64,000 nt of DNA from Candidatus Omnitrophota bacterium (lineage in GTDB: Bacteria > Omnitrophota > Gorgyraeia > Aquiviventales > Aquiviventaceae), in the NCBI GenBank assembly GCA_023247255.1, contig JAHFGV010000005.1:6067-70066 (forward strand), in the 5' to 3' direction. A program made the position numbers and the translations under genes. The stretch's first letter is position 1, and each line of letters starts with the position of its first letter. The notes under the pieces are model-generated. The model was not told the origin of the DNA and ran no database searches. It worked only from the letters and a program-made list of their open reading frames with translations. Shown here in pieces: positions 24,122 through 57,440 of this stretch.

Positions 24122-24164
24122 GCCCGCGAGAGGGCTGCTCCATTGCGAGTCCTTCTCGTTCTCC

Positions 24165-24193: not shown

Positions 24194-24200
24194 TCATGAG

Positions 24201-24875: not shown

Positions 24876-24882
24876 GCCCTTC

Positions 24883-24896
24883 CTGACGGACGTCAT
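24883..24896. promoter_or_regulatory. Crp/Fnr-type dyad site 1
   Basis: CTGAC-GGAC-GTCAT, followed by AGAA. Confidence 0.45.
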
Positions 24897-25043
24897 AGAA
24901 ATCCTCTAGACCGCAAGGTATCGTTGCGGGTAGCCACGTCACAGAGGAGGTGACTCCGTCGGTTTTGCAAGACTACACTCATTGGACGACGAGGAGTTGC
25001 GGAAGCCTCCAAGGGAGATCCCACGCAACTCCATCATAATGAC

Positions 25044-25057
25044 ATGACGTACGTCAT
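25044..25057. promoter_or_regulatory. Crp/Fnr-type dyad site 2
   Basis: ATGAC-GTAC-GTCAT, a perfect 14-nt palindrome. TACAGT lies at 25080-25085. Confidence 0.5.
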
Positions 25058-25107
25058 AGAAGGATTCCCTGTTGAGCGCTACAGTTAGATATGAAAGGAG
25101 GCGCAGG

Positions 25108-26925: not shown

Positions 26926-28118
26926 GTCTCGTCGCGGCGCTTACGCTCGGAGAATCAGCGTGGGCAACGATCGAGAACCTCAAAAGCTACAAGGCAGCCT
27001 ATCCCGATAAAGATCCCAAGGCCTATTCGTGCAAGGCCTGCCACGAGGGCCTCATCGGGAAGAAAGACAACCTCAACGCCTATGGTCTCACCTTGCAGAA
27101 GTTCAAAGTGGATGCCGGGGCGAAGAAATTGACCGAAGAAGATTTTCGGGCGTTCGAGGCTGCGGATGCTGATGGGGATGGCGCCTCCAATCTTGATGAG
27201 CTGGACGCGGGCACTGATCTGAATGATCCCACGTCCGTGCCGGAGGGCGCTGGGCAAACGCCAGAAAAAAAAGAAGAAAGCCCAGGCACTGAGCAGCAGA
27301 CAAGCCCTCCAGGCGGCGCGTCGCAACTGAATCCAGGGACACTGAAACAGTTGCAGGCCTACCTGGAGGAGCAGATCGTCCCAGACGTTCAAGCGGCGCC
27401 AGAGGAATCGTCAGTGTCTAGGCGGCATGACGACAAAACAGCGTCCAACGCCAAATCCTCCCAACCCGAACAGGCTGAGTACGTGGGGATGGAGACCTGC
27501 GCGATGTGTCATAACAAGCAGCACCAGGAATTTCTCCACTCAACCCATGCCAGGATCGCAATCCCCGGAGAGACCAAGGCGCAAGGTTGTGAGACCTGTC
27601 ATGGGCCCGGCAGTCTGCACGTTGCTGCCGGTGGCGGTCGTGGCGTCGGTGGGATTATCAATCCGAAGAAGGATCCCGGCGCCTGTTTTGCCTGTCACCT
27701 CGACAAGAAAGCGGAATTTCGTTTGCCCCATCACCATCCCGTGATGGAAGGCAAGATGAGTTGTGCGGATTGCCACAATCCCCACGGTGAGGATGTGCGG
27801 CCGTGGTCAGCGACGACGCTGAAGGATATCAATGAGGCCTGCTTTCGGTGCCACAAGGAACAGCGCGGCCCATTCGCCTGGGAACACGAGGCGCTGCGGG
27901 AAGGTTGCACGACCTGTCACAAGGTTCATGGCTCGATTCACGAGAAGATGCTGCTCGTCCGGGACAACAACTTGTGCCTGCGCTGCCATACGCAGACGAA
28001 CTTCCCGACCATTGGCAGGTCCAGCCATGCTGGCCGGCTTCCCCAAGGGACGTGCTTTAGCGCGGGATGCCATACGGCGGTTCACGGATCGAACTTCGAC
28101 GATCACCTCCGCTACTAA
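26892..28118 (+). CDS. periplasmic multihaem cytochrome c (MtrA/DmsE-like body)
   Basis: ATG 26892 follows AAGGAGG, then a signal peptide. 8 CXXCH motifs plus CFSAGCH (CX4CH). C-terminal motif CHTAVHGSN. TSP3-like motif DADGDGASNLDELDAGTDLNDP. Confidence 0.8.
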   Translation: MPIRRGLLVGVSLVAALTLGESAWATIENLKSYKAAYPDKDPKAYSCKACHEGLIGKKDNLNAYGLTLQKFKVDAGAKKLTEEDFRAFEAADADGDGASNLDELDAGTDLNDPTSVPEGAGQTPEKKEESPGTEQQTSPPGGASQLNPGTLKQLQAYLEEQIVPDVQAAPEESSVSRRHDDKTASNAKSSQPEQAEYVGMETCAMCHNKQHQEFLHSTHARIAIPGETKAQGCETCHGPGSLHVAAGGGRGVGGIINPKKDPGACFACHLDKKAEFRLPHHHPVMEGKMSCADCHNPHGEDVRPWSATTLKDINEACFRCHKEQRGPFAWEHEALREGCTTCHKVHGSIHEKMLLVRDNNLCLRCHTQTNFPTIGRSSHAGRLPQGTCFSAGCHTAVHGSNFDDHLRY

Positions 28119-28130
28119 AGGAGACGCCTC

Positions 28131-30191: not shown

Positions 30192-30634
30192 TGTGTCCTC
30201 GTCAGCCCCTCAGTCGCCGGGTTTTCCTGGCGCTTTGCCTCAGGGGTGGTGGGCTTGCCCTGCTTGGGGCTGCGCTCTATCCCATCCTGCGGTATCTCTA
30301 TCCTCCCCGAGGCGTTGAATCCTCCGTCTCCAGCGTTGCGGCGGCGAAGGTGGGGGATCTGGCGACGAATACCGCGAAGATCTTCCGGTTCGGCAGTCGG
30401 CCCGGCCTCCTCATTCGTTCCCCCCAAGGCGAGCTCAAAGCCTTCTCGGCGGTGTGCACCCACCTCAACTGCACCGTTCAGTACGACAGCGACGCGAGCA
30501 TCATCTGGTGCGCCTGCCACAACGGCAAGTATGACTTAAACGGACAGGTCATCTCCGGCCCTCCCCCACGACCACTCGATGCCTACCAGGTGAACGTCCG
30601 CGGAGAAGACATCATCGTCTCCAAGACGTCCTAG
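30191..30634 (+). CDS. Rieske [2Fe-2S] protein
   Basis: ATG 30191 overlaps the porin stop (TGATG). RR-containing N-terminus plus a TM helix. Cluster motifs CTHLNC and CACHNG. Confidence 0.85.
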   Translation: MCPRQPLSRRVFLALCLRGGGLALLGAALYPILRYLYPPRGVESSVSSVAAAKVGDLATNTAKIFRFGSRPGLLIRSPQGELKAFSAVCTHLNCTVQYDSDASIIWCACHNGKYDLNGQVISGPPPRPLDAYQVNVRGEDIIVSKTS

Positions 30635-30638
30635 CCTG

Positions 30639-31709
30639 ATGGGGTACTTCGAGCACCTACGCGCATTCTTGCATGAGCGCTACCGGCTGGGTGGCCTAGT
30701 GGATCTCGCCACGCATAAGACGGTCCCCATCCACCGCCACAGCGTCTGGTACTACTGGGGCGGCATGACGCTCGTGCTCATCGGCATCCAGATCATCAGC
30801 GGTGTGCTGCTGTTGCTGTACTACCGCCCATCAGCCCAGGAAGCCTTCGAGTCGGTTCGCTTCCTCATGACGCGGGTGCAATTCGGGTGGCTGGTGCGCT
30901 CCGTGCACGCGTGGGCGGCGAACCTGGCGATCTTCTGCGCGATGGTGCATCTGGCCAGCGTCTTTTTCCTGAAGGCGTATCGGCCACCCCGTGAACTGAC
31001 CTGGGTGACCGGGGTTGTGTTGTTGTTTCTGCTATTTGGTTTCGGATTTACCGGCTACCTCCTGCCGTGGAATACGCTGGCGTTTTTCGCCACCAAGGTC
31101 GGCACGGAAATCGCGGGGATTGTGCCCGTCGTCGGGCCTGTCGTTCAAATCTTTCTGCGCGGTGGAAGCGACGTTGGGGATGTGACGATCACGCGGTTCT
31201 TTTGGCTTCATGTCGCAATCCTGCCAATCGGCCTGATGACACTCTTAAGCCTTCATCTGCTCATGATCCAGCTCCAGGGCATGAGCAAACCGCCTTGGGT
31301 TAAGAGCAATCGGTCCATGCCGTTCTTTCCGAATTTTTTCCTGCGCGATCTGGTTGCCTGGTCACTCATACTGGGGATAGTGCTGTGTGTGAGCGTGCAC
31401 TGGCCCGCGACGCTCGGCGAAAAGGCCGATCCGTTCGCTCCGACACCCGTGGGCATCCAACCGGAATGGTATTTTCTCTGGATGTTTCAGACGCTCAAGA
31501 TTTTCCCTGGCCACCTGTTTGGTCTCGAGGGTGAGTTAGTCGCGGTGGGATTGACCGGACTGGCGGGTCTTGCGCTGCTACTCGTTCCATGGCTGGATCG
31601 CCCCGCCCGACGGGAGCAATCATCCTGGCTGGTATGGGCTGTTGGCGTGTTGGGCATTGCCTATGTCGTCGGGATGACCGGCTACGCGCTATGGGTGAAA
31701 CCTCACTGA
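30639..31709 (+). CDS. cytochrome b (b6 plus subunit-IV-like, fused)
   Basis: 356 aa with WYYWGGMTL, VRSVHAWAANL and GYLLPWN, plus the paired His context. Confidence 0.9.
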   Translation: MGYFEHLRAFLHERYRLGGLVDLATHKTVPIHRHSVWYYWGGMTLVLIGIQIISGVLLLLYYRPSAQEAFESVRFLMTRVQFGWLVRSVHAWAANLAIFCAMVHLASVFFLKAYRPPRELTWVTGVVLLFLLFGFGFTGYLLPWNTLAFFATKVGTEIAGIVPVVGPVVQIFLRGGSDVGDVTITRFFWLHVAILPIGLMTLLSLHLLMIQLQGMSKPPWVKSNRSMPFFPNFFLRDLVAWSLILGIVLCVSVHWPATLGEKADPFAPTPVGIQPEWYFLWMFQTLKIFPGHLFGLEGELVAVGLTGLAGLALLLVPWLDRPARREQSSWLVWAVGVLGIAYVVGMTGYALWVKPH

Positions 31710-32995
31710 TGACAGGGTATCGTCTACGGGTGGCACTCGGACTTCTGCTGTGCCCTGGCTTTGTGTGGTCGGCTGAGAAGCCGAATAGTTGTGTCGAGTG
31801 CCACAAGCAGGTGGAGGGCCAAACGCGAGGGCCGGCCACACTGGCTGCAGAGGACGTGCATTTCCAGCGAGGCTTGTCCTGCGTGGATTGCCATGGCGGC
31901 GATCCAACAGCGATGGATCCTCAAGCCGCGATGGACCCGGCTAAAGGGTTCCTCGGTCGCCCGAGGCGGGAGCAGATTCCCCAGTTTTGCGCCCGGTGCC
32001 ACGCGGATCCGGCCACCATGCGCAAGTACAATCCCAATCTTCCGACTGACCAATACGCGAAGTACCTGACCAGTCAGCACGGGAAGCGCTTCAGTGTTGG
32101 CGATGCCGATGTGCCGGTCTGCATCAGTTGCCACGAGGCGCACGGCATCCGCTCGAAAAAAGACCCAGCCTCGCCGGTCTACCCGACGAACATCCCCGGA
32201 ACCTGCGCGAGCTGCCACAGCGACGCGTCGATCATGGACAAACACGGCTTGCCGGTGAACCAGCACTGGGACTACTCGCAGAGCGTCCACGGCCAGGCGC
32301 TGTTGTTCCGTGGCGATCGTGCGGCTCCCCATTGCGCGAGCTGCCACGGATCGCACGAAGCGGCCAAACCTAGGACGGTCGCAATCGGCAACGTCTGCGC
32401 TCAGTGCCATAGCCTCACGCGCGATCTGTTTGCAAAGAGTCCCCACAAGGCCGCGCATGAAGCCTTAGGGCTTCCGGAGTGCGAGGTCTGCCACGGCAAT
32501 CACCTGATCCGCAAGCCAAGCGACGAGATGCTTGGGACGGGACAAGATGCGGTGTGTGTCAGTTGTCACGAGCCAGGGTCGACCGGCTACGTCACCGCGC
32601 AGCAGATGCGCAGCGCCATCGAGCAACTGAAAACCCACATGGCCAGCGCTGAGGCAGCCGTCAGGCACGCAGCGGAGTTGGGCATGGATGTCGGTGACGC
32701 GGAATTTGAGCTTCGCGAGGCGATGACCCAACTCACGCAAGAGCGCACCTACGTCCACTCTTTCTCCGCCGCAACCATGGAACCCATTGCCGAGGAGGGA
32801 ACTCACCACGCCCTGCGGGCCGAGGGGCAAGCCCGCCAGGCGATCCGTGAGTTTCATTTCCGCCGTCAGGGCTTGTGGGTCACCCTGATCATTCTCGCCC
32901 TCGTGGTTTCTGGACTCCTTCTGAAGATTCGAGACTTGGAGCGATCGGACTCGACAGACAAGATGGACGACACATCCCCTCGCGACTCCTCGTAA
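31709..32995 (+). CDS. nonahaem cytochrome c with C-terminal membrane anchor
   Basis: ATG 31709 overlaps the cyt b stop (TGATG). Signal peptide, 9 CXXCH motifs, a helical region and a C-terminal TM (LWVTLIILALVVSGLLL). Confidence 0.8.
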   Translation: MTGYRLRVALGLLLCPGFVWSAEKPNSCVECHKQVEGQTRGPATLAAEDVHFQRGLSCVDCHGGDPTAMDPQAAMDPAKGFLGRPRREQIPQFCARCHADPATMRKYNPNLPTDQYAKYLTSQHGKRFSVGDADVPVCISCHEAHGIRSKKDPASPVYPTNIPGTCASCHSDASIMDKHGLPVNQHWDYSQSVHGQALLFRGDRAAPHCASCHGSHEAAKPRTVAIGNVCAQCHSLTRDLFAKSPHKAAHEALGLPECEVCHGNHLIRKPSDEMLGTGQDAVCVSCHEPGSTGYVTAQQMRSAIEQLKTHMASAEAAVRHAAELGMDVGDAEFELREAMTQLTQERTYVHSFSAATMEPIAEEGTHHALRAEGQARQAIREFHFRRQGLWVTLIILALVVSGLLLKIRDLERSDSTDKMDDTSPRDSS

Positions 32996-33032
32996 AATCT
33001 GCCATTTCCGGCTATGATATCTGCGGAGCATC

Positions 33033-34550
33033 ATGAACCACACATCGATGCCAAAACCCCCCAGCCTCTTGCGCAACCCGCTGAGCTTTTTCGGCCTCGC
33101 CGTCGCCATCACGAGCACGGCGTTTGGCCTGCCCATGATGTTCGTCGACATGTTCAGTCGACGCACGCATCCGTATCTTGCTGTGCTCGTTTATCTCGTG
33201 CTGCCGTTCGTTGCAGCAGGCGGCGTCGGCTTAGTCCTGCTTGGAGCATTGTGGGAACGCCGTCGAAGACGCCGACGGCCTGGCATGGTAGTGCCACCCC
33301 TGCCATCCATCGATCTCAATCGAAGCGCCCACCAGATTGCTGTGGCTGGAGCACTCACAACGTTCATGACTATTGTGGCCATGCTCTCCGTGACCGGCTA
33401 CCGGGCGTACCACTTTACGGAGTCGGTCAAATTCTGCGGCCTGGTCTGTCACCAGGTGATGAAACCGGAGTATACGGCGTATCAGTATTCTCCGCATGCG
33501 CGCGTGGCCTGCACCCAGTGCCATGTCGGGCCTGGTGCAAGCTGGTTCGTGCGCTCAAAGATCACAGGAGCGTATCAGGTTTACGCGGTTACATTCAACA
33601 AGTACCCGCGCCCGATTCCCACACCCGTGAAGAGCCTGCGTCCGGCGCAAGAAACTTGCGAGCAATGCCACTGGCCGGCGAAGTTTTTTGGCGCGCAGCA
33701 GAAAACCTTCACGCACTACATGGCGGATGAGCACAACAGCCCGTGGCAGATTCAGATGCTGCTGAAAATCGGCGGCGGCGATCCGTCGGTTGGCGCTCCT
33801 GCGGGCATTCACTGGCACATGAACATCAAGAACGATATTTATTACATTGCCTCAGATGAGCAGCGGGAAACCATTCCGTGGGTGCGCGTGGTCGAGCCGC
33901 AGGGACGCATCGCCGAATATATGTCGATGGAAAGTCCGCTCTCGCCGGAGCAGATCGTAAAGAGCGAAGTGCGCCGCATGGACTGCGTGGATTGCCACAA
34001 CCGGCCCTCCCACATCTTTCGACCGCCGGATCGTGCGGTGGAGGAGGCCTTCGAGACCGGCCGGCTAGAGCGGTCCCTGCCGTATCTGAAGCGCGAAGCC
34101 ATAAGGTTGTTGGCGCAAGAGTACCCCTCGGAGGAGCAGGCGTTATCAGCCATCCTGAAAGGCTTGGCCGAGTTCTACCAGAAGGACTATCCAGAGGTGT
34201 ATCGCGAACAGGCAGTCGCTATTCAACAGGCCACAGCTGAGTTGCAACGCATCTATTCGAGGAATTTCTTTCCCGAGATGCGCGCCGATTGGCGCGCCCA
34301 TCCCAACCACATGGGCCATCTAAATGCCGAAGGCTGCTTCCGCTGCCACGATGGGCTGCACAAAAACCGCGAGGGCAAGGTGCTAACCAAAGACTGTACC
34401 GCCTGTCACACGATCTTGGCCCAGGGGCCACCTGAGGAGGTGGCGCAAGCCAAGCTTGAAGCGCAGCCGTTTCGCCACCCGGTCGACGTGGGGATGGACG
34501 TGACGGAATTTAAGTGCAGCCAGTGTCATACCGGCACGAGCGGTCTCTAG
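33033..34550 (+). CDS. membrane-anchored multihaem cytochrome (NapC/NirT-related, ImcH-like architecture)
   Basis: 505 aa with N-terminal TM helices. CGLVCH (CX3CH) followed by 6 CXXCH motifs. Confidence 0.7.
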   Translation: MNHTSMPKPPSLLRNPLSFFGLAVAITSTAFGLPMMFVDMFSRRTHPYLAVLVYLVLPFVAAGGVGLVLLGALWERRRRRRRPGMVVPPLPSIDLNRSAHQIAVAGALTTFMTIVAMLSVTGYRAYHFTESVKFCGLVCHQVMKPEYTAYQYSPHARVACTQCHVGPGASWFVRSKITGAYQVYAVTFNKYPRPIPTPVKSLRPAQETCEQCHWPAKFFGAQQKTFTHYMADEHNSPWQIQMLLKIGGGDPSVGAPAGIHWHMNIKNDIYYIASDEQRETIPWVRVVEPQGRIAEYMSMESPLSPEQIVKSEVRRMDCVDCHNRPSHIFRPPDRAVEEAFETGRLERSLPYLKREAIRLLAQEYPSEEQALSAILKGLAEFYQKDYPEVYREQAVAIQQATAELQRIYSRNFFPEMRADWRAHPNHMGHLNAEGCFRCHDGLHKNREGKVLTKDCTACHTILAQGPPEEVAQAKLEAQPFRHPVDVGMDVTEFKCSQCHTGTSGL

Positions 34551-34627
34551 GCCTGCCCGCCTGTCGTCCAAAAGTGTGATCTGGGTCATAGTTCGTCTCC
34601 CTGCGTTCTGAGAAGATTACTTAGGCG

Positions 34628-36183
34628 ATGGGGGAGGCTCTGACGAGAAACGGCGGACGGATACGGCGCGTAGCGCTCTGCGCGCTCTTCACGTGCTGGA
34701 CCTGGGCGCCGCGGGCCATGGGAGAGGGCAGCGTCTCTCCAGCCGCGCAAGAGATCGACAACGCTGCCTGTCTGGCTTGCCATGGTGATCCCTCGGCAAT
34801 CCGCTTTGTGGACCACGCGAAGTTCGAGGCTTCCGTCCATGGGAGTTTTTCCTGCACTACCTGCCACGCGGATGTCGTCACCATTCCCCATGACGTGCCG
34901 CTGGAGTCGATCAGTCAGTCGCAGATCCCCCTCACGTGCGGCCAGTGCCATGAAGACATCAAGGCTGCCTACCAGCGGAGTATCCACGCTCAGGCGGTCG
35001 CCGCCGGCAAGCGCCATGCGCCCGTCTGCACCGACTGCCATGGTGAGCACTATGTGGCCCCGGTGAAAACGGAGGCGTCGAAAGTGTTTCCCTCGCACAT
35101 CCCGCAGACGTGCGCACAGTGCCACGCGGCGGAGCGCATCGTTACGAAGTATCGGTTGCCGGCGTACGTGGTCGATACGTACATGAGCAGCTTCCACGGC
35201 CTCATACACCAACTGGGATCCGTGACGGCCGCGAACTGCGCCTCCTGCCACGGGGCGCATGACATTCTCCCCGCGAACGACGAGCGTTCCTCGGTCAATC
35301 CGAAGAACCTGCCGAAAACCTGTGGCTCCTGCCATCCGGGCGTCGGCGCGTTCGTCGCACAGGGAAAGATTCACTCCGGCACACAGCCCGGAGCGGAACA
35401 TCCTGCGGTGACATTCGTTCGCCGGTTCTACCTCATCCTCATCGGTTTGGTCATTGGGGGCATGCTGATTCACAACGGTCTCGATTTCCGCAAAAAACTC
35501 TCGATCCATTACCAACGGATGGCCGCCAGCAGCGCGGTACAACGGATGAGTCTTAATGAGCGCCTTCAACATGGCGTGCTCTTGATCGCCTTTGCGACGC
35601 TCGCCTATACCGGATTTGCGTTAAAGTTCCCGCATGTCTGGTGGGCACGCCCCTTCATGGGCCGCGTCGACTGGCGCCGCCTGGGGCATCGGGGAGCGGC
35701 GGTCGTCTTCTGCCTGCTCGCCGGCTACCACCTCTGGTTCATGACGTGCACGAAACGGGGGCGGAGCGAGTTGCGCGCCTTGCGACCCGAACGAGCCGAC
35801 TTCACGCACCTGAGACGGATGCTCGGCTTCTATCTGGGTAGGAGCCGGGAGCAGCCGCGCGCGGCGCGGTACAGCTACGTGGAGAAAGCGGAGTATTGGG
35901 CGCGGTCTGGGGTTCAGTCATCATGGTGCTCACCGGCGGTCTGATGACCTGGCAGAATTGGACATTGCGCTTCCTGCCCAAGTGGGCGTTCGATGTTTTT
36001 ATCACGGTGCATTTTTATGAAGCACTCCTCGCATGCTTGGCGATCCTTATTTGGCACCTCTACTTCGTCATGTACGATCCCGATGAATACCCGATGAAGT
36101 GGACGTGGATCAGCGGCAAGGCCTCACCCACCGACGAGGCACATCGGCATCCAGGCGACGCCGAGGAAGGCAATCCAGGCTGA
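34628..36183 (+). pseudogene. CbcL-like fusion of a heptahaem cytochrome c to an FdnI/HydC-type cytochrome b membrane domain, frameshifted
   Basis: Signal peptide, 7 CXXCH motifs, then TM helices. The reading frame breaks near 35899-35905 (..KAEYWA / VWGSVIMVLTG..). The track shows two ORFs, 34628..35944 and 35896..36183. Confidence 0.65.
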
Positions 36184-43586: not shown

Positions 43587-43760
43587 ATGTTTGGGAATAT
43601 TGGGTTTCCAGAGCTGTTGGTGATTTTGTCGATCGTGCTCCTCCTCTTTGGGGCCAAGCGGCTGCCGGAGATTGCGCGTGGCTTGGGGAAGTCGCTCTCT
43701 GAATTCAAGAAGGGACTGAAGGAGATCGAGCACGACGTCAACGATGTCAAGAAGGTCTGA
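43587..43760 (+). CDS. tatA: twin-arginine translocase subunit TatA/E
   Basis: 57 aa, below the track cutoff. [42 protein letters not shown] lies upstream. Confidence 0.85.
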
Positions 43761-43766
43761 GCGAAG

Positions 43767-45365
43767 GTGGCGGCTCCGGTCAACCGGCCGATGACGGAAG
43801 CGTTGAGGATGCGTCTCGGTATGCTGATTGCGGTGGTTGCGCTAGGCTCAGGGTGCGCCAAGGAGCCATCCGCAACACTCTCGAGCGCGAAACCGTCTGT
43901 GACCCCGCAGATCGTTGAAATGGGCCGGCGGCTTTACAACAAGCAGTGCGCGGTCTGTCATGGCCCGAAGGGCGCGGGCGACGGCCAGGCAGCTTACCTC
44001 CTCTATCCTAAGCCGCGCGATTTCACACAAAACGAATTCCGACTTGTCTCGACCAGCACGATGCAGGCCACCGATGAAGATCTGTTTCTCACCATTACCC
44101 GTGGGACGCCCGGCTCCGCGATGCCCTCCTGGGAGACGCTGACGTCGGAGCAGCGCTGGGCGTTGGTGTATTACGTTCGCCACCTCACGGGTGCGAGCGA
44201 ATCCATTGATCCAGCCTCAATCATCCACGTCCCTCCAGAGACGCCGAAGACCCCCGAGAGCATCGCGCGTGGCCGCCAAATTTTTGTCCAGGCGTGCGCG
44301 TCCTGCCATGGGCCACAAGGCCGCGGTGATGGGCAGCAGGTCATGGCGGACAACGCCGGATATCCTATCAAGCCACGCGATCTCACCGCAGGCGTCTTTA
44401 AGGGGTCGTCTGAGAGCAACGATTTGTATTACCGAATTGTCGCTGGATTGCCGGGCAGCCCGATGCCAAGTTACGCTGACGTCTACACCGACGAGCAGTT
44501 GTGGGATCTCATCCACTACGTTCAATCGCTCGTACCGTCGGGAGTCGAGGATCGCGTCCGCATGCATGCACGGAGCATCCGCGCCCATCGGGTCAGAGGC
44601 GACATCCCATTAGAACCGACAGCGAAAATCTGGAGCACGAGACAACCGGTCTCTATCGCCCTCACACCATTGTGGTGGCGCGATCACCGAGTCGAAGGGG
44701 TCGAGGTCAAAGCGTTGCACAACGGCAAAGAGCTCGCGCTTCAATTGTCATGGAACGACCAGACGCGTGACAACTCGACCCTCACCCCGCAGGCGTTTTC
44801 CGATGGTGTCGCGGTAGAATTCTCCTTAGAACAGGACCCGCCGTTCTTTGGGATGGGTGACGCAAACGGAGTCGTGCAGATATGGCACTGGAAAGCCTCC
44901 TGGCAGGAGGACCTCAAGGGCTGGCAGGACGTGGAGACCGCCTACCCCAATGCTGCCGTGGATTGGTATCCCGCACAGCGTGACTATCAGCACGGTGAAC
45001 CCTCCGAGGTGAGCCAGTCGAGGACGGCCTCGCAGGACCCACGGTTCATGGGCGGATGGGGAGCGGGCAATCCCCTCTCCGATCCGAATCGAACGTCAGC
45101 GGCTGAGGAAGCGATGGCCAAGGGATTGGGGACGCTGACCTCACGCGCACCTTCGATGCAACGGATCCAAGCGGATGGTCTCTGGCAAGACGGTCGGTGG
45201 CAGGTCGTGCTGCATCGACCGCTTGCGCCCAACGAGGAGGGGGATCTGAGGCTGAAGCCTGGGCAGCAAGTCAGCGCGGCGTTTGCGATCTGGGATGGCC
45301 ATGCCGGGGATCGCAACGGCCAAAAGAGCGTGTCGATTTGGAACATCTTGGAGCTGGAGCGATAG
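43767..45365 (+). CDS. NxrC/EbdC-like gamma subunit candidate: lipoprotein with two class-I cytochrome c domains plus an EB_dh haem-b domain
   Basis: Lipobox VALGSGC. CAVCH and CASCH, each with a downstream MP(S). C-terminal EB_dh-like region FSDGVAVEF..FFGMG..VQIWHWKASW. GTG start, with ATG 43791 or 43809 as alternatives. Confidence 0.7.
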   Translation: MAAPVNRPMTEALRMRLGMLIAVVALGSGCAKEPSATLSSAKPSVTPQIVEMGRRLYNKQCAVCHGPKGAGDGQAAYLLYPKPRDFTQNEFRLVSTSTMQATDEDLFLTITRGTPGSAMPSWETLTSEQRWALVYYVRHLTGASESIDPASIIHVPPETPKTPESIARGRQIFVQACASCHGPQGRGDGQQVMADNAGYPIKPRDLTAGVFKGSSESNDLYYRIVAGLPGSPMPSYADVYTDEQLWDLIHYVQSLVPSGVEDRVRMHARSIRAHRVRGDIPLEPTAKIWSTRQPVSIALTPLWWRDHRVEGVEVKALHNGKELALQLSWNDQTRDNSTLTPQAFSDGVAVEFSLEQDPPFFGMGDANGVVQIWHWKASWQEDLKGWQDVETAYPNAAVDWYPAQRDYQHGEPSEVSQSRTASQDPRFMGGWGAGNPLSDPNRTSAAEEAMAKGLGTLTSRAPSMQRIQADGLWQDGRWQVVLHRPLAPNEEGDLRLKPGQQVSAAFAIWDGHAGDRNGQKSVSIWNILELER

Positions 45366-45367
45366 CC

Positions 45368-48300
45368 ATGTATCTGACGCGTCGTCAGTTTTTAAAACTC
45401 TCAGGAGCTACTGGAATCGGGTTGTATCTCGCCTCACGCGAGGTCTCGCTCTGGGCGCTGGAGCCGGTGAGCGAGATAGAGAATCCGCTCGCCTACTATC
45501 CTTCGCGAGACTGGGAGAAGCTCTACCGCGACCAGTACCGGTATGACAGCACCTTCTCCTGGGTCTGCTCGCCCAACGACACGCACGCCTGCCGGGTCCT
45601 GGCGTACGTGAGAAACGGCGTCGTGGTGCGTCTTGGCTCAGAGTACAACTATGAAACCTACGCCGACCTGTACGGAAACAAGGCCACTCCCAACTGGAAC
45701 CCGCGCCAGTGCGCCAAAGGTTTCACCTTTCATCGGCTCATCTACGGTCCTTACCGCTTGAAACATCCCATCATCCGTAACGGTTGGAAGCGCTGGGCCG
45801 ACGACGGATTCCCAACGCTGACCCCTGAGAAAAAGACACAATACAAGTTTGACTCGCGCGGCACAGACACTTTTGAAAAAATCAGTTGGGAGGATATCTA
45901 CGGCTACATTGCCCGCGGCCTCATCGCTATCGCTACGCGCTACAGCGGCGAGCCGGGCATAACACTCCTGCGCGCACAGGGCTATCCCGAGGAAATGATC
46001 CAAGCGATGGGTGGGGCCGGGACACGGACCTTGAAGTTCCGCGGCGGGATGGGCCTGCTTGGGGTGTTTGGCAAGTACGGCATGTACCGACTGGCGAACA
46101 CGATGGCGCTTCTCGATGTCCACCTGCGCGGTGTCAAGCCTGAGGAGGCGAAGGCCGGACGGACGTGGTCCAACTACACGTGGCACGGCGATCAGGCGCC
46201 GGGGCATCCCTGGGTGCATGGATTGCAGAACGCCGACTGCGATTTCAACGACCTTCGTTTTTCCAAGCTGATCATCCAGGACGGCAAGAACCTCTGCGAG
46301 AACAAGATGACCGACTCGCACTGGTTCATTGAATGTATGGAGCGTGGGGCAAAGCTGGTGACGATCGCGCCCGAATACAGCCCGCCGGCGTCGAAGTCGG
46401 ACTATTGGATTCCGATTCGCCCGCAGACCGATGCCGCGCTCTTCTTGGGTATCACGCGCCTCATGATCGACCGAGGCTGGTACGACCGGGAGTTTATCCT
46501 GAACTTCACCGACTTTCCGCTCTTGGTGCGAACCGACACCCTGCGGCGCCTTCGAGCGAATGAGATCCTGCCGGGCTACCAAGGGCAGTTGTCCAAGGAC
46601 GGCCCAAGCTACAAGCTCCAGGGATTGAAGGACGAGCAGTATGCCAAGTTGGGGGACTTCGTCGTCTGGGATGAATCCTCCGGAGCGCCCGCCGCAATCA
46701 CACGCGACGACGTCGGCAAGCGTCTCGTACAGAAAGGCGTCCACCCCGCGCTTGAAGGGACGTTTACACTCAACACGGTGGATGGGAAGCGTATTGAGGT
46801 GATGACGCTCTTTTCGCTCTATCAACTCCACCTCAAGGACTACGACCTTGATACCGTGCATGAGATCACTCGCGCGCCGAGAGAGCAGATCGAACAACTC
46901 GCGAAGGACATCGCCACTATCTCGCCAGTCGCGATCCACCAAGGCGAGGGCATCAACCACTACTTCCACGCCACCGAGGCCAATCGCGCCGCCTATCTGC
47001 CGCTGATGCTGACCGGCAACATCGGCCAACGCGGTGCTGGCTGCTACGGATGGGCCGGCAACTACAAGGCTGCGCTTTTCCAAGGCTCTCCATGGACCGG
47101 TCCGGGATTCAAAGGCTGGGTGGCCGAGGATCCGTTTGAGCCTAACCTTGACCCCAACGCGCACGGGAAAGACATCCACGCGCACGCCTACTTCAAGGAC
47201 GAAGAGCCGGCTTATTGGAACCACGGGGATAAGCCGCTGATCGTCGAGACGCCCAAGGGCGGCCGCAAGGTCTTCACCGGCAACACTCACATGCCCACAC
47301 CCACAAAGGCGATGCTTTTCACCAACGTGAACCTCATCAACAATGCCAAGTGGGTCTATGAGATGCTCAAGAACGTCAACCCGAATGTCGAGATGATCCT
47401 TTCTATCGACATCCAAATGACCGCTTCGATCGAATACGCGGACTTAGCACTGCCGGCGAATAGCTGGCTTGAGTTCGAGGGGCTGGAGGTTACGGCGTCA
47501 TGCTCCAACCCTTTCCTCCAGATCTGGAAGGGCGGGATTCCGCCTGTGTTCGACAGCCGGGATGATCTGGTGATTCTCGCCCAGATCGCCGAAGCGCTCG
47601 GCAAGGAAATCGGCGATACGCGCTGCAGCGACTACTGGAAGTTTGCGCTCGAGGGCAAGCGCGAAGTCTACATCCAGCGGCTGCTGGATTCCTGCACGAC
47701 GACGGTTGGCTATCGTCTGGAGGACATCATGGCGGGCAAGTACGGGCCGCCGGGGGCGGCACTCATGCTCTTTCGCACCTATCCCCGGATCCCCTTCTGG
47801 GAGCAGGTGCACGAGGACTTACCTTTCTACACCGACCACGGGAGGCTTTCGGCCTACACCGATGTGCCCGAGGCGATCGAGTACGGCGAGAATTTCATCG
47901 TCCACCGTGAAGGTGCGGAGGCGACACCCTACCTGCCGAACGTCATCGTCAGCAGCAACCCGTACATCCGCCCCAACGATTACGGTATTCCCTTATCGGC
48001 GGAGCACTGGGATGACCGCACGGTGCGCAACGTGAAGATGCCGTGGGATCAGGTCAAAGGCACAAAGAATTTCCTCTGGGAAAAGGGCTTTCAGTTTTAC
48101 TGTCTAACTCCCAAGAGCCGCCATCGCGTCCACTCGCTTTGGAGCAACGTGGACTGGCACCAAATCTGGGACTCCAACTTCGGCGATCCCTACCGGATGG
48201 ACAAACGCAGCCCTGGTGTTGGCGAACACCAGGTTCACATGAATCCCCAGGCGGCAAAGGATTTAGGGATCAATGACGGCGATTACGCCTATGTCGATGC

Positions 48301-48820
48301 GAATCCAGCAGATCGTCCCTACATTGGGGCGAAACCTGACGATCCGTTCTATCGGGTGGCGCGGCTGATGCTGCGTGTCAAGTACAACGCAGCCTACCCG
48401 TACAACGTCGTCATGATGAAGCACGGGACCTATATTGCCACCGAGAAATCTGTGAAGGCCCACGAGACGCGCAAGGATGGACGGGCCCTCTCCGCTGACA
48501 CCGGCTACCAGGCGAACTTCCGCTACGGGTCGCAGCAGAGTGTCACGCGCAACTGGCACATGCCGATGCACCAGACCGACTCACTCTTCCACAAGGCGAA
48601 GGTCTTCATGGGCTTTCTCTTCGGCGGCGAGGCGGACAATCACGCGGTCAACACGGTTCCGAAAGAGACGCTGGTGCGCGTGACGAAAGCGGAAGACGGC
48701 GGGTTGGGTGGCCAGGGCGTGTGGGCTCCGGCGACGACCGGCTATACCCCGGCCAACGAGAACGACACGATGAAGAAGTACCTCGAAGGCCGGTTCGTTG
48801 AGGAGAGCAAGAAATGGTAA
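45368..48820 (+). CDS. nxrA: periplasmic NxrA/NarG-type molybdopterin (bis-MGD) oxidoreductase alpha subunit
   Basis: ATG 45368, 1150 aa. TAT signal MYLTRRQFLKLSG. The N-terminal FeS region WVCSPNDTHACRV...RQCAKG resembles Nitrospira/anammox NxrA as I recall it. Confidence 0.85.
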   Translation: MYLTRRQFLKLSGATGIGLYLASREVSLWALEPVSEIENPLAYYPSRDWEKLYRDQYRYDSTFSWVCSPNDTHACRVLAYVRNGVVVRLGSEYNYETYADLYGNKATPNWNPRQCAKGFTFHRLIYGPYRLKHPIIRNGWKRWADDGFPTLTPEKKTQYKFDSRGTDTFEKISWEDIYGYIARGLIAIATRYSGEPGITLLRAQGYPEEMIQAMGGAGTRTLKFRGGMGLLGVFGKYGMYRLANTMALLDVHLRGVKPEEAKAGRTWSNYTWHGDQAPGHPWVHGLQNADCDFNDLRFSKLIIQDGKNLCENKMTDSHWFIECMERGAKLVTIAPEYSPPASKSDYWIPIRPQTDAALFLGITRLMIDRGWYDREFILNFTDFPLLVRTDTLRRLRANEILPGYQGQLSKDGPSYKLQGLKDEQYAKLGDFVVWDESSGAPAAITRDDVGKRLVQKGVHPALEGTFTLNTVDGKRIEVMTLFSLYQLHLKDYDLDTVHEITRAPREQIEQLAKDIATISPVAIHQGEGINHYFHATEANRAAYLPLMLTGNIGQRGAGCYGWAGNYKAALFQGSPWTGPGFKGWVAEDPFEPNLDPNAHGKDIHAHAYFKDEEPAYWNHGDKPLIVETPKGGRKVFTGNTHMPTPTKAMLFTNVNLINNAKWVYEMLKNVNPNVEMILSIDIQMTASIEYADLALPANSWLEFEGLEVTASCSNPFLQIWKGGIPPVFDSRDDLVILAQIAEALGKEIGDTRCSDYWKFALEGKREVYIQRLLDSCTTTVGYRLEDIMAGKYGPPGAALMLFRTYPRIPFWEQVHEDLPFYTDHGRLSAYTDVPEAIEYGENFIVHREGAEATPYLPNVIVSSNPYIRPNDYGIPLSAEHWDDRTVRNVKMPWDQVKGTKNFLWEKGFQFYCLTPKSRHRVHSLWSNVDWHQIWDSNFGDPYRMDKRSPGVGEHQVHMNPQAAKDLGINDGDYAYVDANPADRPYIGAKPDDPFYRVARLMLRVKYNAAYPYNVVMMKHGTYIATEKSVKAHETRKDGRALSADTGYQANFRYGSQQSVTRNWHMPMHQTDSLFHKAKVFMGFLFGGEADNHAVNTVPKETLVRVTKAEDGGLGGQGVWAPATTGYTPANENDTMKKYLEGRFVEESKKW

Positions 48821-49521
48821 ACGAGAGCCGCGCTTACCGCAATCGATGGAAATATCTATGTGCAGGGCTTACGAGCGTCATGCTCGTTCTAGGACTCACT
48901 CCAATGAGCTGGGCGAGGGATGATCTCCAGGTGTGGAATACCATCGAGCTCAGCAAGCGGCTCGGTCCACATTGGGAGGTGTTTTTCCTTCCGGAGATAC
49001 GGATACGCGATGATGCGGGCGAGTTCTTTTACCACGAGTACCGCCAGGGTGTGCGCTACAAGCCCTCCAAACACTGGCAACTCGGGCTCAATTACCTATT
49101 CGTTCGCAACGAGTCCTCCGGCAAACCGCTCGAGGAGCATACCGGCGAGCTCGACCTCACGCCTAAAACGACGCTAGGCCCCCTCGAGGTCTCTCTGCGA
49201 GGGCGGCTGGCGCTGCGGACCATTCAAGGCAGCACCGGCGAGCAGGAATGGCAGTTTCGAGTGATGCCGAAGGTCGCGTATCCGACCCAGTTCGTCGGTC
49301 ACAAGCTCATCCCCTACGCCGCCGATGATCTGTACTACGACTACACCCGCGACGCGTGGAACCAGAACCGGGTGTTCCTTGGTCTTGCCATCCCCATGGG
49401 CAAGGCGCTTGGCGCCGAGACGACGGTGGATGTCTACTACATGCTCCAGAGTCAACTCGGCAAACGGCACGACTGGAGCAGCAGCCACGTCCTGGGGACG
49501 AAACTGAGTGTCAGATTTTGA
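48814..49521 (+). CDS. small outer-membrane beta-barrel protein (DUF2490-like)
   Basis: 235 aa with a signal peptide (..TPMSWA) and amphipathic strand pattern. The C-terminal ..GTKLSVRF ends in Phe. Overlaps the nxrA stop (ATGGTAA). Confidence 0.5.
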   Translation: MVNESRAYRNRWKYLCAGLTSVMLVLGLTPMSWARDDLQVWNTIELSKRLGPHWEVFFLPEIRIRDDAGEFFYHEYRQGVRYKPSKHWQLGLNYLFVRNESSGKPLEEHTGELDLTPKTTLGPLEVSLRGRLALRTIQGSTGEQEWQFRVMPKVAYPTQFVGHKLIPYAADDLYYDYTRDAWNQNRVFLGLAIPMGKALGAETTVDVYYMLQSQLGKRHDWSSSHVLGTKLSVRF

Positions 49522-49541
49522 CGAGATGAGGCGTGTGAGCG

Positions 49542-49818
49542 ATGCCGTATAAGGAACCCGAACCGGATGATCCTTTGGAGCTGACGGGAGTCGTCCTACC
49601 TGCTTCGGACGAGACGTCACTGAAGGAAATGGCCGTGTGTTTCGTCGAAGAGTTCCTGCGCGACGGCTGGTCGGATGAGCAGCTTCGTGCGATGTTCCGC
49701 AATCCCTACTACCGAGGTCCCTACCTCGTGTGGCGGCAGAAGGGCGATGCATACGTGGAGGCTGTGATCCAGGAAGTCCGTCACATCTGGCGCCCCAACG
49801 CAGCCGGAGGAGCGACTC

Positions 49819-49826
<8 letters not shown>
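49542..49826 (+). CDS. hypothetical 94-aa protein
   Basis: Acidic N-terminus and W/Y-rich core, with no signal peptide. The stop overlaps the nxrB start by 8 nt, suggesting co-translation. Confidence 0.35.
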
Positions 49827-51057
<1,231 letters not shown>

Positions 51058-51087
51058 ATTTTGCTGCGCAACATTTATTAACCGGAT

Positions 51088-51867
51088 ATGAATCCTACGA
51101 TAAATCTTCCTTCGGAAAATTTAATTGAGGACCTGCTGGCGAGAAGCGCCGTCTATCATGCGCTGTCGCTGCTGCTGCGCCATCCAGACGCGGCCGCCAT
51201 GAAGTGGCTGTCGATGCGGGAATATCAGCGGCTGGCTGAGGTCGTGGAGATGCTGACGAAGGAACGAAAGGGATCATTGCACGAGGCTGTGCGGTATATG
51301 ATGACGGCGTTCGAGGGGGTGTCGATTGCGGAGTGGACCCGCGACTATGAACGGATCTTCGGACACTCGGTCCAGAGCGCGGCGCCACCCTATGAACTGG
51401 AGTACGGCGAGGAGCACAGCCATCGGCAGCCGCAGGAGCTGGGCGATATCGCGGCATTCTATCGAGCGTTCGGCCTTCGCGTGGCCTTTGCCTCGCATGA
51501 GCGGATCGATCATATCGTCACGGAGTGCGACTTCATGCAGTACCTGCTCTATAAGCAAGCCTGTGCACTTGATGAGGGGAGCGAGGAGCGGGCGGATGTG
51601 TGCGAAACGGCAGCCCAGCAGTTCCTCGCTGATCACCTCGGTCGCTGGGGTCCGGCCTTTGCCCTAAGACTCTCGCGAGCGGCTGAGCAGAGAGTCTTGG
51701 GAGCGCTTGCCGATACGACCCTGGCATGGCTGGTGCAGGATTGCGAGCGTATGCAGGTGCCTACCGGATCACGCGACCTCCCGCTGCGACTGCCCAAGGA
51801 ACGGGATGAGGTGGGATGCGCAGCGTGCGCACCTCAGCAGCTAGGAAATACTGATGGCAAGCGTTGA
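51088..51867 (+). CDS. TorD/NarJ-family redox enzyme maturation chaperone
   Basis: 259 aa with the pattern YHALSLLL...EYERIFG...PPYELEYG...DHI..ECDFMQYL. Confidence 0.7.
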   Translation: MNPTINLPSENLIEDLLARSAVYHALSLLLRHPDAAAMKWLSMREYQRLAEVVEMLTKERKGSLHEAVRYMMTAFEGVSIAEWTRDYERIFGHSVQSAAPPYELEYGEEHSHRQPQELGDIAAFYRAFGLRVAFASHERIDHIVTECDFMQYLLYKQACALDEGSEERADVCETAAQQFLADHLGRWGPAFALRLSRAAEQRVLGALADTTLAWLVQDCERMQVPTGSRDLPLRLPKERDEVGCAACAPQQLGNTDGKR

Positions 51868-52801
51868 TGTCCAGTTTGATCCAGCATTTGTGGAAGAGAC
51901 GGTTTTCCTTGAATTGAGGAACCGGGAAGCCCTCGGCAATTGCGCGATGGCGCAGGCGTTTCATGTACAGCGCAGCGCCCTCTATGACACCACGACCGCA
52001 ACAGGCGAGCGCGAGGCGCGATTTCAGCAGCTGGCAGCCCGCTATTTCCAGGAGCTTGGATTCTCCGAGCTCTTTGCGAAACGGTTCGAAGAGTTTCCGC
52101 TGATCGGAGCGCATGTTCCTGTTGCGCTGGTGCGACGCGCCTGGAGCCGCAAGGAAGAGCGCGTTGAGTTATACGTTCCCCCTACGCCCGGTGGGGGCTC
52201 AAGCCTCAAAGCTTTTCCGACGCTGTGGATCGGTTTTCAGGTCGCCCGGTGCTTAAATCGCGAGCAGCTCGTGGCGTTCCTGCGGCATGAGCTCATGCAC
52301 ATCTCTGATATGTTTGACCCGGCGTTCGGGTACCAACCGCATCCAGACTTCGGCGCGGAGTGTGAAACAGAAGAGGACCTAATCCGTAAGCGCTTCCGAT
52401 TGCTGTGGAACCTCGTTGTGGATGGGCGGATGCGCCGGAAGGGCTGGCCGGCCGTTGACCATGGAACGACACGTCTTCGGGAGTTTGAGCGGGCGTTTGC
52501 CTCCTGGGACCCGCAGCGCCGCGAGGCGGTGTGGCCGGATCTTGGCAACCGAGCATCCTGCACGCAACGTGAGCTCCTGGAACTGGCGAAGGACGAACGT
52601 CTCACCCGGATGCTGGGGCAAGGCGGCGTTCGCTGCCCCTTGTGCCATTTTCCGACGCGGGAGGGCGTGTGCGATTGGCGTGGCGAACGCGCGGCTGTTG
52701 CTGAAGCGATCCAAACGGATTACGCCTGGTGGGATCCGGTTCAGGGAGCATGCCGGCAGTGCTTCGAGTTGTATCGCGCAAGGCTACCGGTGATGGGATG
52801 A
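51854..52801 (+). CDS. hypothetical HExxH-motif protein with C-terminal Cys4 zinc ribbon
   Basis: 315 aa with LRHELMHISD (HExxH) and CPLCH..C..CRQC near the C-terminus. Overlaps both neighbouring genes. Confidence 0.45.
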   Translation: MASVDVQFDPAFVEETVFLELRNREALGNCAMAQAFHVQRSALYDTTTATGEREARFQQLAARYFQELGFSELFAKRFEEFPLIGAHVPVALVRRAWSRKEERVELYVPPTPGGGSSLKAFPTLWIGFQVARCLNREQLVAFLRHELMHISDMFDPAFGYQPHPDFGAECETEEDLIRKRFRLLWNLVVDGRMRRKGWPAVDHGTTRLREFERAFASWDPQRREAVWPDLGNRASCTQRELLELAKDERLTRMLGQGGVRCPLCHFPTREGVCDWRGERAAVAEAIQTDYAWWDPVQGACRQCFELYRARLPVMG

Positions 52802-53172
52802 CGCGCGAAGACGCAAATGCGACGAACGGCGAAATCAATCGGCGCACGTTTCTCGCCTCGGCGCCTCGGCACCTGCTGGACGGGCTGAGAGCGCTGATGA
52901 GCGATCTCAGAGGGCTCTCGCCGCCTGTCTTGGATGACCAGGCATGGCCGCTTCCTCGAAAGGTGGCGATGCTGGATGTCTCGCGGTGTCTCGCGTGGGG
53001 AGGAGGGGGCTGTCAGGTGTGTTATCTCCGGTGTCCCCTGCGTGAGCGTGCGATGGTGTTTGAGGATGGCAAACCAACGGTGGTGGCTTCCATGTGCGAC
53101 GGCTGTGGTGTCTGTGTCGAGGCGTGCGAAGCCGTCAATGACCTTGGAGCGATGACGCGTGTGAGTGTATGA
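52798..53172 (+). CDS. TAT-signal 4Fe-4S ferredoxin-like protein
   Basis: ATG 52798 overlaps the upstream stop. NRRTFLAS, then the Cys clusters CLAWGGGGCQVCYLRCP and CDGCGVCVEAC. Confidence 0.6.
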   Translation: MTREDANATNGEINRRTFLASAPRHLLDGLRALMSDLRGLSPPVLDDQAWPLPRKVAMLDVSRCLAWGGGGCQVCYLRCPLRERAMVFEDGKPTVVASMCDGCGVCVEACEAVNDLGAMTRVSV

Positions 53173-56706: not shown

Positions 56707-57440
56707 ATGGACGGCCTGTGGTGGCTTGTCCCTGTGTTTTTTGTGATTGCCCTGGCATACGCTTCGGTGGGGCACGGGGGCGCATCGGGGTATCTGGCGG
56801 CGCTGTCGTTTTTCGCCTTCTGTCCGGATGAAATGGCCACGACGGCGCTCACGTTGAATCTCTTCGTAGCTGGCATAGCCCTGATGAGCTTTGCGCGGGC
56901 AGGCCATTTTGTCGGCCGACTCACGTGGCCGTTTGTCGTCGCGTCGGTCCCAGCCGCTTTTCTGGGAGGGCTCATCCCTGTGTCGGTTCGCTTCTATCAG
57001 GTGCTGCTCGCGATCGCCTTGGGCGTGGCGGCGGTCCGTCTTTCCCTGGATCTCCGTGGCCGAGAAGAGGGTCGTGTCGTGAGGCCCAGCTTGGCGCTCG
57101 CGTTGCCGACCGGCGGCGGAATCGGGTGGCTCTCGGGAGTAGTCGGCGTAGGAGGAGGGATTTTCCTGAGCCCCTTTCTGCTGTTATTGCGCTGGGCTAC
57201 CCCAAAGCAGACAGCCGCCGCTTCAGCCGCGTTCATCCTCATCAATTCAGCCGCCGGTCTTTGCGGGCGGTCAGATCCGGCCTTGAGTATGGAACCCTGT
57301 GGCCGTTGCTCGCAGCCGCCCTGATCGGTGGATGGGTTGGCGCACACCTGGGCGCGAACCATTTCTCTGGACAGATACTAAAACGGCTCCTGGCGGTCAT
57401 ACTTCTCATCGCAGCTGCCAAGTTGCTTATCAGCCAATGA
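56707..57440 (+). pseudogene. TauE/SafE (DUF81) family membrane transporter, frameshifted
   Basis: The two track ORFs (56707..57324, 56925..57440) join as ..INSAAGLCG / AVRSGLEYGTLWPLL.. across a G-run at 57265-57267. GGASGY and GVGGGIF motifs are present. Confidence 0.6.

Follow-up and report, generated by a model that had tools for sequence, protein, structure and literature searches.

Nearly all of the Earth's nitrate is made by nitrite oxidoreductase (NXR). The way in which electrons enter or exit the enzyme at its gamma subunit is unsettled, and in the only NXR solved so far, that of Kuenenia, electrons end at the haem b of the gamma subunit NXR-C, where an unidentified partner docks at a positively charged groove (Chicano et al., PMC8387239). 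Here we describe an operon in which a dihaem cytochrome c module and an NxrC-type haem-b domain are joined in a single polypeptide. The operon lies in a 64,000-nucleotide stretch of DNA from a Candidatus Omnitrophota bacterium (positions 6,067 to 70,066 of contig JAHFGV010000005.1, assembly GCA_023247255.1), referred to in its entirety as the window. We consider it likely that the fused protein is the gamma, or electron-exit/entry, subunit of a periplasmic nitrite:nitrate oxidoreductase, and that it represents a lipid-anchored NxrC fused to a cytochrome c relay.

The closest described systems divide into single-haem gamma subunits and proteins in which haem c and haem b are combined. The initial annotation of the window took characterised gamma subunits to be single haem-b proteins, and the literature agrees: Kuenenia NXR-C and EbdC of ethylbenzene dehydrogenase each carry one haem b (PMC8387239), and SerC, ClrC and DdhC are soluble haem-b subunits (PMC3578206). 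In NXR-C the haem-b ligands are Met155 and Lys305 (Chicano et al., PMC8387239). NxrC-like proteins with both haem c and haem b have been known from the genomes of nitrite oxidisers since 2013 and will not surprise specialists. Lücker et al. (2013) reported 'alt_NxrC' copies in Nitrospina gracilis that have one to three cytochrome c sites and a haem-b domain, and proposed that alt_NxrC hands on nitrite-derived electrons (PMC3578206). Mundinger et al. (2019) described alt_NxrC_2 of Nitrospira moscoviensis with a signal peptide, a transmembrane (TM) helix and a dihaem cytochrome c, and placed the Nitrospira nxrC genes apart from nxrAB (PMC6606698); a conserved cluster with an alternative NxrC is also mentioned by Mueller et al. 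(10.1101/2020.06.09.141952). A further point of comparison is Kustc0457 of Kuenenia stuttgartiensis, a dihaem cytochrome c in complex with the nitrite-reducing HAO-like protein Kustc0458 (PMC8042395).

Domain composition and haem ligands of the probable fused gamma subunit

The translation of the gamma open reading frame (ORF) contains every sequence string from which the initial annotation had read two class-I haem-c domains joined to an ethylbenzene dehydrogenase (EB_dh) haem-b domain (CAVCH, PGSAMPS, CASCH, PGSPMPS, FSDGVAVEF, FFGMG and VQIWHWKASW), and Pfam matches bear out this composition with the haem ligands intact. The two cytochrome c domains occupy residues 52-137 and 166-255 (Cytochrom_C, E = 9.4e-27; Cytochrome_CBB3, E = 8.6e-24), and the C-terminal region does match EB_dh (PF09459), with E = 2.1e-27 and 97.2 bits against a gathering score of 33.3. 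The polypeptide ends (...SIWNILELER) inside the EB_dh domain and is without a C-terminal TM helix. Translation could also start at either of two in-frame ATG codons (43791, 43809), in which case the signal peptide would lose part of its n-region only and stay valid. A database protein identical to gamma is found on ENA contig k141_5670910.

Comparison of gamma with all PDB sequences assigned its two halves to different solved proteins. Residues 47-257 match Kustc0457 (6H5L_B) over 211 residues with E = 5.3e-49, residues 309-532 match Kuenenia NXR-C (7B04_C) with E = 3.9e-30, and the same C-terminal region matches EbdC (2IVF_C) more weakly, with E = 3e-13. In these alignments Met363 of the FFGMG motif and Lys520 of the NGQK motif coincide with Met155 and Lys305 of NXR-C, and Met363 also coincides with Met108 of EbdC. 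An AlphaFold2 (AF2) model of gamma built from 38 homologues (mean pLDDT 79, pTM 0.76) was compared with the PDB by Foldseek, which recovered the same three chains: 6H5L_B with TMt 0.86 and a root-mean-square deviation of 2.2 Å, 2IVF_C with TMt 0.78 and 7B04_C with TMt 0.73. No solved chain covering both halves of gamma was found in this Foldseek search of the PDB.

Conservation of the haem ligands was assessed in an alignment of 38 homologues that are 49-81% identical to the gamma query, with a mean column identity of 52%. Ten residues are invariant in all 38: C61, C64, H65 and M119 of the first haem-c site, C177, C180, H181 and M233 of the second, and M363 and K520 of the haem-b site. Because all ten ligand residues are invariant, all three haem sites are under selection. 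The predicted ligation is His/Met for the two c haems and Met/Lys for the b haem, a combination that we presume makes all three high-potential centres. An assembly or frameshift artefact that joins two genes was also considered; since the same architecture recurs in hundreds of independent assemblies, this explanation of the fusion can be set aside.

The likenesses to the solved proteins are accompanied by clear differences. Kuenenia NXR-C (Kustd1704, 7B04 chain C) shares with the window gamma the EB_dh fold, a Met/Lys haem b at aligned positions, highly similar alpha and beta partners and a periplasm-equivalent location, but it is soluble, carries a single haem b and has the unidentified redox partner mentioned above (PMC8387239), whereas the window gamma is extended at its N-terminus by about 260 residues that carry a lipobox and two c haems. 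Gene order differs as well, with gamma preceding alpha in the window and the NXR-C gene following beta in Kuenenia. Kustc0457 (6H5L chain B) is, like the N-terminal half of gamma, a two-domain class-I dihaem cytochrome, with approximately 39% identity over approximately 215 residues; it is free-standing and forms an alpha6-beta6 complex with an octahaem HAO (PMC8042395), whereas the module in the window is covalently joined to NxrC. Family scans recognised no HAO-type gene among the multihaem ORFs of the window. That the c-haem half of gamma is homologous to the dihaem cytochrome that accompanies the anammox nitrite reductase is modestly new. EbdC (2IVF chain C), and by extension SerC, ClrC and DdhC, shares with the window protein the EB_dh fold, a Met/Lys haem b and the role of soluble periplasmic gamma in a type II dimethyl sulfoxide (DMSO) reductase-family enzyme, yet it has a single haem, lacks c-haem domains and a lipid anchor, and passes its electrons to a separate cytochrome c.

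The alt_NxrC proteins (Nitrospina gracilis alt_NxrC2-4 and Nitrospira moscoviensis alt_NxrC_2) resemble the window gamma in having c-haem motifs and a haem-b domain in one polypeptide. As described, their genes are separate from nxrAB and either belong to clusters with a cytochrome bd-like oxidase or have other neighbours, and their hosts also have canonical NxrC, whereas the window gamma is encoded first in an nxrAB operon, bears a lipobox and is the only gamma candidate in the window; Nitrospira alt_NxrC_2 moreover has the C-terminal TM helix that the window gamma lacks. Proteins of 525-532 residues from metagenome-assembled genomes (MAGs) of Nitrospinota and Nitrospinaceae fall in the gamma family (matches to the family profile: P0146, E = 6.4e-143; the P0264 cluster, E = 6.5e-96), a comparison that is based on MAG proteins and not on the published sequences of cultured strains. 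The fused gamma belongs to a known, biochemically uncharacterised kind of protein.

Operon context and distribution

The gamma stop codon is followed after 2 bp by the start of alpha, and the operon continues with beta and delta (Table 1). Alpha residues 1-1145 match Kuenenia NXR-A (7B04_B) with 1848 bits and, by eye, roughly 70% identity, while the next-best matches are perchlorate reductase PcrA with 185 bits and ethylbenzene dehydrogenase EbdA with 160 bits. Alpha also keeps residues equivalent to Asn70, which positions the substrate, and to Asp275, the Mo ligand, in its SPNDTH and WHGDQ motifs, and beta matches Kuenenia NXR-B (7B04_A) with 625 bits. Because alpha and beta match NXR-A and NXR-B and the active-site Asn and Asp are kept, we assign the holoenzyme, from sequence, to the NXRs of the periplasmic Nitrospira/Nitrospina/anammox type. 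Searches by tblastn with each half of gamma found no second EB_dh or dihaem gene in the 64 kb, so the gamma ORF is the only gamma candidate in view. The earlier proposal of a gamma-subunit candidate of a type II DMSO reductase-family enzyme is thus upheld by an operon with alpha, beta and delta (43767-51867) that contains the sole EB_dh gene of the window.

The fusion proved to be far more widespread than the initial annotation had implied. A word-indexed protein search with gamma returned 2264 hits, of which the best 120 have the same Pfam domain set and, in 117 cases, both CxxCH motifs; these 120 come mostly from Omnitrophota MAGs, with some from Chlamydiota, the PVC group and Desulfobacterales. 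A profile search covered 1.84 billion representatives (50% identity) and yielded 2101 proteins at E <= 1e-30. Among its top 150 matches most are 430-610 residues long, with two CxxCH motifs followed by EB_dh with the Lys-containing motif, and about 12 are shorter and apparently truncated, with one CxxCH or none. When one genome per GTDB species was scanned, a gamma relative was found encoded in 390 species-level genomes, which represent at least ten phyla; the best 80 of these 390 are all MAGs and belong to Omnitrophota, Planctomycetota, Acidobacteriota, Desulfobacterota, Binatia, Methylomirabilota/Rokubacteria, Verrucomicrobiia, Latescibacterota and Krumholzibacteriia. The supposed rarity is contradicted by these 390 genomes and by more than 150 clusters at 50% identity, Nitrospinaceae/Nitrospinota included, and because this broad distribution is joined by the published 'alternative NxrC', the fusion can largely be called common in described NXR systems. 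The database labels of the fused proteins are 'ethylbenzene dehydrogenase-related protein' and 'c-type cytochrome'.

Synteny was examined in 85 loci by tblastn with the proteins of the window operon. Nearly every contig of sufficient length showed the same succession of gamma, alpha, small ORF, beta, delta and an ORF of approximately 310 residues, and this conserved operon order extends to about 80 loci in at least ten phyla. In one Nitrospinota MAG and one Bdellovibrionota MAG the order is x, A, x, B, D, gamma, with the fused gene still within the operon; a small ORF lies between alpha and beta in these operons too, and the Bdellovibrionota fused protein has an apparent C-terminal TM helix. 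The nearest species-level relatives are groundwater Omnitrophota, with gamma 70-74% and alpha 84-91% identical. A split arrangement, with separate dihaem and EB_dh genes, was sought as well, and the stand-alone EB_dh protein P0153, encoded on a 1.2-kb contig, was uninformative in this respect.

One conserved NXR-like operon is therefore common to Omnitrophota, Acidobacteriota, Methylomirabilota, Binatia and others, which matters for the interpretation of metagenomic 'nxr' or 'nar' hits as nitrite oxidation or nitrate reduction. What may be new is the fused protein as the only operon-encoded gamma in a broad uncultured NXR clade. In the literature that we covered, which is incomplete, no account was found of an operon type with the fused protein as sole and first-encoded gamma across uncultured phyla, and NXR in Omnitrophota (Omnitrophica) received passing mentions only. 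Speth et al. (2016) scored an OP3 genome for a nitrate reductase, possibly the one encoded by this operon. A 2025 GBE paper on anammox enzymes does not treat the NXR gamma subunit.

Table 1. Coordinates of the fused gamma gene, its sequence features and the surrounding genes discussed in the text (window positions)
Feature	Position	Strand	Details
Fused gamma (lipoprotein signal, dihaem cytochrome c module, EB_dh haem-b domain)	43767..45365	+	532 aa (amino acids), GTG start
Signal peptide and lipobox	43767..43856	+	LIAVVALGSG-C; Cys30 codon 43854-43856; PROSITE PS51257 pattern
Dihaem class-I cytochrome c module, aa 47-257	43905..44537	+	Pfam and 6H5L_B match
Haem c 1 site, C61xxC64H65 (CAVCH)	43947-43961	+	Met119 44121-44123
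Haem c 2 site, C177xxC180H181 (CASCH)	44295-44309	+	Met233 44463-44465
EB_dh haem-b domain, aa 306-521	44682..45329	+	Pfam EB_dh and 7B04_C/2IVF_C matches; Met363 44853-44855, Lys520 45324-45326
Alpha, NxrA-type molybdopterin subunit	45368..48820	+	1150 aa; TAT signal TRRQFLK; Pfam Molybdopterin, TIGR03479
Beta, NxrB-type	49819..51057	+	Four Fe-S clusters; Fer4_11, TIGR03478
Delta, TorD/NarJ-type chaperone	51088..51867	+	Pfam Nitrate_red_del 1.4e-19, TIGR03482 1.8e-22
tatA-like gene directly 5' of gamma	43587..43760	+	57 aa; Pfam TatA_B_E 1.5e-17
DUF2490 ORF, probable outer-membrane barrel	48814..49521	+	Pfam DUF2490 1.8e-24
Small ORF between alpha and beta	49542..49826	+	94 aa, conserved
Accessory ORF	51854..52801	+	315 aa; HELMH motif, Cys-rich C-terminus; syntenic in ~50 loci
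Ferredoxin-like ORF	52798..53169	+	123 aa; RRTFL motif; Fer4_10 1.1e-05
TauE/SafE-family permease gene	56707-57324	+
DDE_Tnp_4 transposase	21135-22136	+	Between ATP synthase/complex I region and cytochrome cluster
Crp/Fnr-family regulator and hemerythrin-domain protein	24117-25761	+	Just 5' of cytochrome cluster
DmsE/MtrA-like multihaem cytochrome, then 686-aa protein	26853-30191	+	8 CxxCH, TIGR03508 2e-47
Rieske	30062-30634	+
Cytochrome b	30639-31709	+
Cytochromes after cytochrome b: 9-haem, 6-haem (NrfH/NapC-like), 7-haem with b561-like membrane domain	cluster 30062-35944	+

Proposed electron path and competing explanations

Homology and operon structure suggest how such an enzyme could be put together. 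By sequence rules, gamma would leave the cytoplasm through Sec, be cut at the lipobox and be tethered to a membrane through a lipidated Cys30, and the alpha/beta pair would be exported by Tat. The EB_dh domain would bind one haem b through Met363 and Lys520 and would dock on beta by the last Fe-S cluster (FS4), as NXR-C does in the Kuenenia crystal (7B04). The two covalent His/Met c haems could then shuttle electrons between haem b and a pool of c-type cytochromes or a Rieske/cytochrome b complex, with the dihaem module continuing the path beyond haem b as far as an exposed c haem, where exchange with membrane-side cytochromes would take place. Rather than meeting a soluble cytochrome c partner by diffusion, as single-haem gammas do, this NxrC would have its partner joined to it, and by analogy the fusion may be a covalent version of the pairing between NXR-C and its partner. 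The 'built-in wire' role suggested in the initial annotation is a reasonable hypothesis for this arrangement of domains. A broad set of NXR-type operons in which a dihaem cytochrome c is already attached to gamma suggests what the partner may look like, and the fused gamma makes for a self-contained enzyme of three subunits whose c-haem entry point is defined, which would be a simpler biochemical target.

Several observations weigh against this assignment. Gamma matches the NCBIfam model TIGR03477 (DMSO_red_II_gam) in two stretches with 137.5 bits, below the curated cut-off of 169.85; the AF2 model is without cofactors; cofactor loading, lipid attachment, the contact with beta and the sense of electron flow are predictions; and the view is limited to 64 kb, so that a canonical single-haem nxrC could lie elsewhere in the genome. 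To the same side belong the expression of alt_NxrC_2, the context of the fused gene in Nitrospinaceae and the sparse occurrence of the lipobox, each of which bears on a particular alternative. If the true NxrC were indeed encoded elsewhere, the protein could be a separate shuttle or adaptor like the 'alternative NxrC', linking NXR or another molybdoenzyme to the respiratory chain. Nitrospira and Nitrospina carry both a canonical NxrC and a haem-c/haem-b alt_NxrC (PMC6606698, PMC3578206), and alt_NxrC_2, highly transcribed as it is, stays 2.5- to 4-fold under the core subunits, for which reason its authors doubted it as a core subunit (PMC6606698). In Nitrospinaceae MAGs (L086, 2692-5951) the fused dihaem-EB_dh gene adjoins FGE-sulfatase and Oxidored_molyb (sulfite-oxidase-type) genes and not nxrAB; a place beside a sulfite-oxidase-type gene implies that the fold can serve other enzymes, and the Nitrospinaceae module may well serve a different molybdoenzyme. 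The window gene, however, sits inside the operon immediately 5' of alpha, its synteny is shared by the conserved loci of many phyla with no second EB_dh gene in any of those operons, canonical nxrC is absent from the window, and the Met/Lys haem-b site, which in NXR-C contacts beta, is fully conserved. A shuttle or adaptor role for the window protein is in our estimation unlikely, and we retain its assignment as the gamma subunit.

A different alternative keeps the protein as gamma and disputes its anchor, taking the N-terminus as a signal-peptidase-I signal or an uncleaved anchor with an incidental Cys. At the N-terminus a positively charged n-region and a hydrophobic h-region lead up to the lipobox, with RMRLGM preceding LIAVVALGSGC; it satisfies the full PROSITE pattern PS51257, but it has Gly at position -3, where the canonical residue would be Leu. 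In the near clade, defined as the block of homologues at 65-82% identity, 23 of the 26 members with a complete N-terminus show a lipobox-like motif whose Cys follows Gly, Ala or Ser, and this Cys is kept exactly 31 residues (21 of 26) or 32 residues (two of 26) before the first CxxCH despite divergent surroundings. In the wider family a lipobox-like motif occurs in only 18 of 84 members; the remainder have ordinary Sec-type signal peptides or a hydrophobic anchor at the N-terminus, and C-terminal TM helices occur in a few (P0179, P0266 and probably P0181). We judge it unlikely that the window protein is no lipoprotein. The lipoprotein claim of the initial annotation thus stands for the lipobox itself, present at Cys30, and has to be narrowed in that the feature is conserved only in the nearest clade; since the lipobox is kept there and sparse elsewhere, lipid anchoring appears to be a clade-level variation on a common theme of gamma held at the membrane. 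By the sorting rule of E. coli, the Ala at position +2 would destine the protein for the outer membrane, a rule that does not transfer by default to this phylum. As for the substrate, nitrite/nitrate activity has been demonstrated for the Kuenenia enzyme only (PMC8387239), and the NCBIfam models for the type II DMSO reductase family are all matched under their curated cut-offs, so chlorate, selenate or a hydrocarbon might be considered in place of nitrite and nitrate. The end-to-end match of alpha with the crystallised and assayed NXR-A, its wide lead over PcrA and EbdA, the retained substrate-positioning Asn and Mo-ligand Asp (PMC8387239) and the match of beta with NXR-B leave such a substrate scarcely probable.

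Beyond the assignment as an NXR gamma subunit, two further readings can be entertained, to which we jointly give little chance. By a Rosetta-stone argument, NxrC and a Kustc0457-type dihaem cytochrome c may be direct redox partners where they are separate; if true, the missing acceptor for electrons from anammox NXR-C would be identified, and NXR would be wired directly to the HAO-type nitrite reductase. In the second and bolder reading, which concerns the organism of the window, a lipid-anchored tri-haem gamma may let a periplasmic NXR-type nitrate reductase draw on the nearby porin-cytochrome-like conduit and Rieske/cytochrome b complex, which, if true, would provide an enzymatic route for the nitrate-dependent oxidation of extracellular Fe(II).

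Direction of catalysis and neighbouring genes

NXRs are reversible (PMC8387239), and the enzyme encoded here may be a cytochrome c-dependent nitrate reductase or a nitrite oxidase. We lean slightly, and not decisively, towards anaerobic nitrate reduction fed via a bc-type complex, because the window encodes a Rieske/cytochrome b pair, multihaem cytochromes, a Crp/Fnr-family regulator and a hemerythrin-domain protein, and because a scan of the window ORFs, which did not extend to several short ones, found no haem-copper oxidase. The Rieske/cytochrome b pair and the multihaem cytochromes lie 8-17 kb 5' of gamma, and the initial annotation's link between gamma and these upstream cytochromes is conjecture. 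The DmsE/MtrA-like cytochrome and the 686-residue protein that follows it look like a porin-cytochrome conduit across the outer membrane; the latter has a signal peptide, no family match and the C-terminus ...VIWLELSKQF. ResB/CcsA, FeoB and DtxR-FeoA genes come after the multihaem cytochromes. Elsewhere, a Rieske/cytochrome b pair and a hexahaem gene also lie 5' of the fused gamma gene in locus L024, and NnrS, Crp and hemerythrin genes adjoin the operon in locus L003; these last genes are a further hint at anaerobic nitrate reduction.

Several smaller genes accompany the core subunits. The near clade also has the tatA-like gene 5' of gamma, as do, with lower identity, loci L014, L017 and L031. 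The DUF2490 ORF overlaps the 3' end of alpha by 7 bp, has a signal peptide and ends in ...LSVRF; a search of 88 related loci found no counterpart. Five other loci, all distinct (L003/L023, L004/L005, L006, L039 and L045), have an Alginate_exp-type barrel gene 5' of the fused gamma gene, and the barrel genes near the operon may encode a dedicated outer-membrane anion channel. For the 94-residue ORF, Pfam, NCBIfam and the PDB gave no family or structure match, and tblastn found a match in the corresponding place in most of the loci whose contigs reach this point.

The 315-residue ORF likewise has no match in Pfam, NCBIfam or the PDB, and hence no NXR-T-like protein was recognised. It was considered as an NXR-T or additional c-haem subunit and rejected, given the missing matches, the absence of a signal peptide and a single CPLCH that lies within the Cys-rich C-terminus; because of its HELMH motif, this Cys-rich end and the lack of a signal peptide, we read it as a cytoplasmic accessory protein and not as a cytochrome. 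Among the conserved genes of NXR clusters Lücker et al. name a 'zinc-finger' protein, to which this ORF may correspond. The 123-residue ferredoxin-like ORF that follows is conserved in 20 loci.

Molybdenum-cofactor genes lie 3' of the operon, with the TauE/SafE-family permease gene embedded among them. A nitrite-export role has been proposed for TauE/SafE-type genes by Speth et al. (2016), a role that would be unnecessary for a periplasmic enzyme. In two distant relatives, loci L001 and L004, a TauE/SafE-family permease gene is likewise situated within the molybdenum-cofactor genes.

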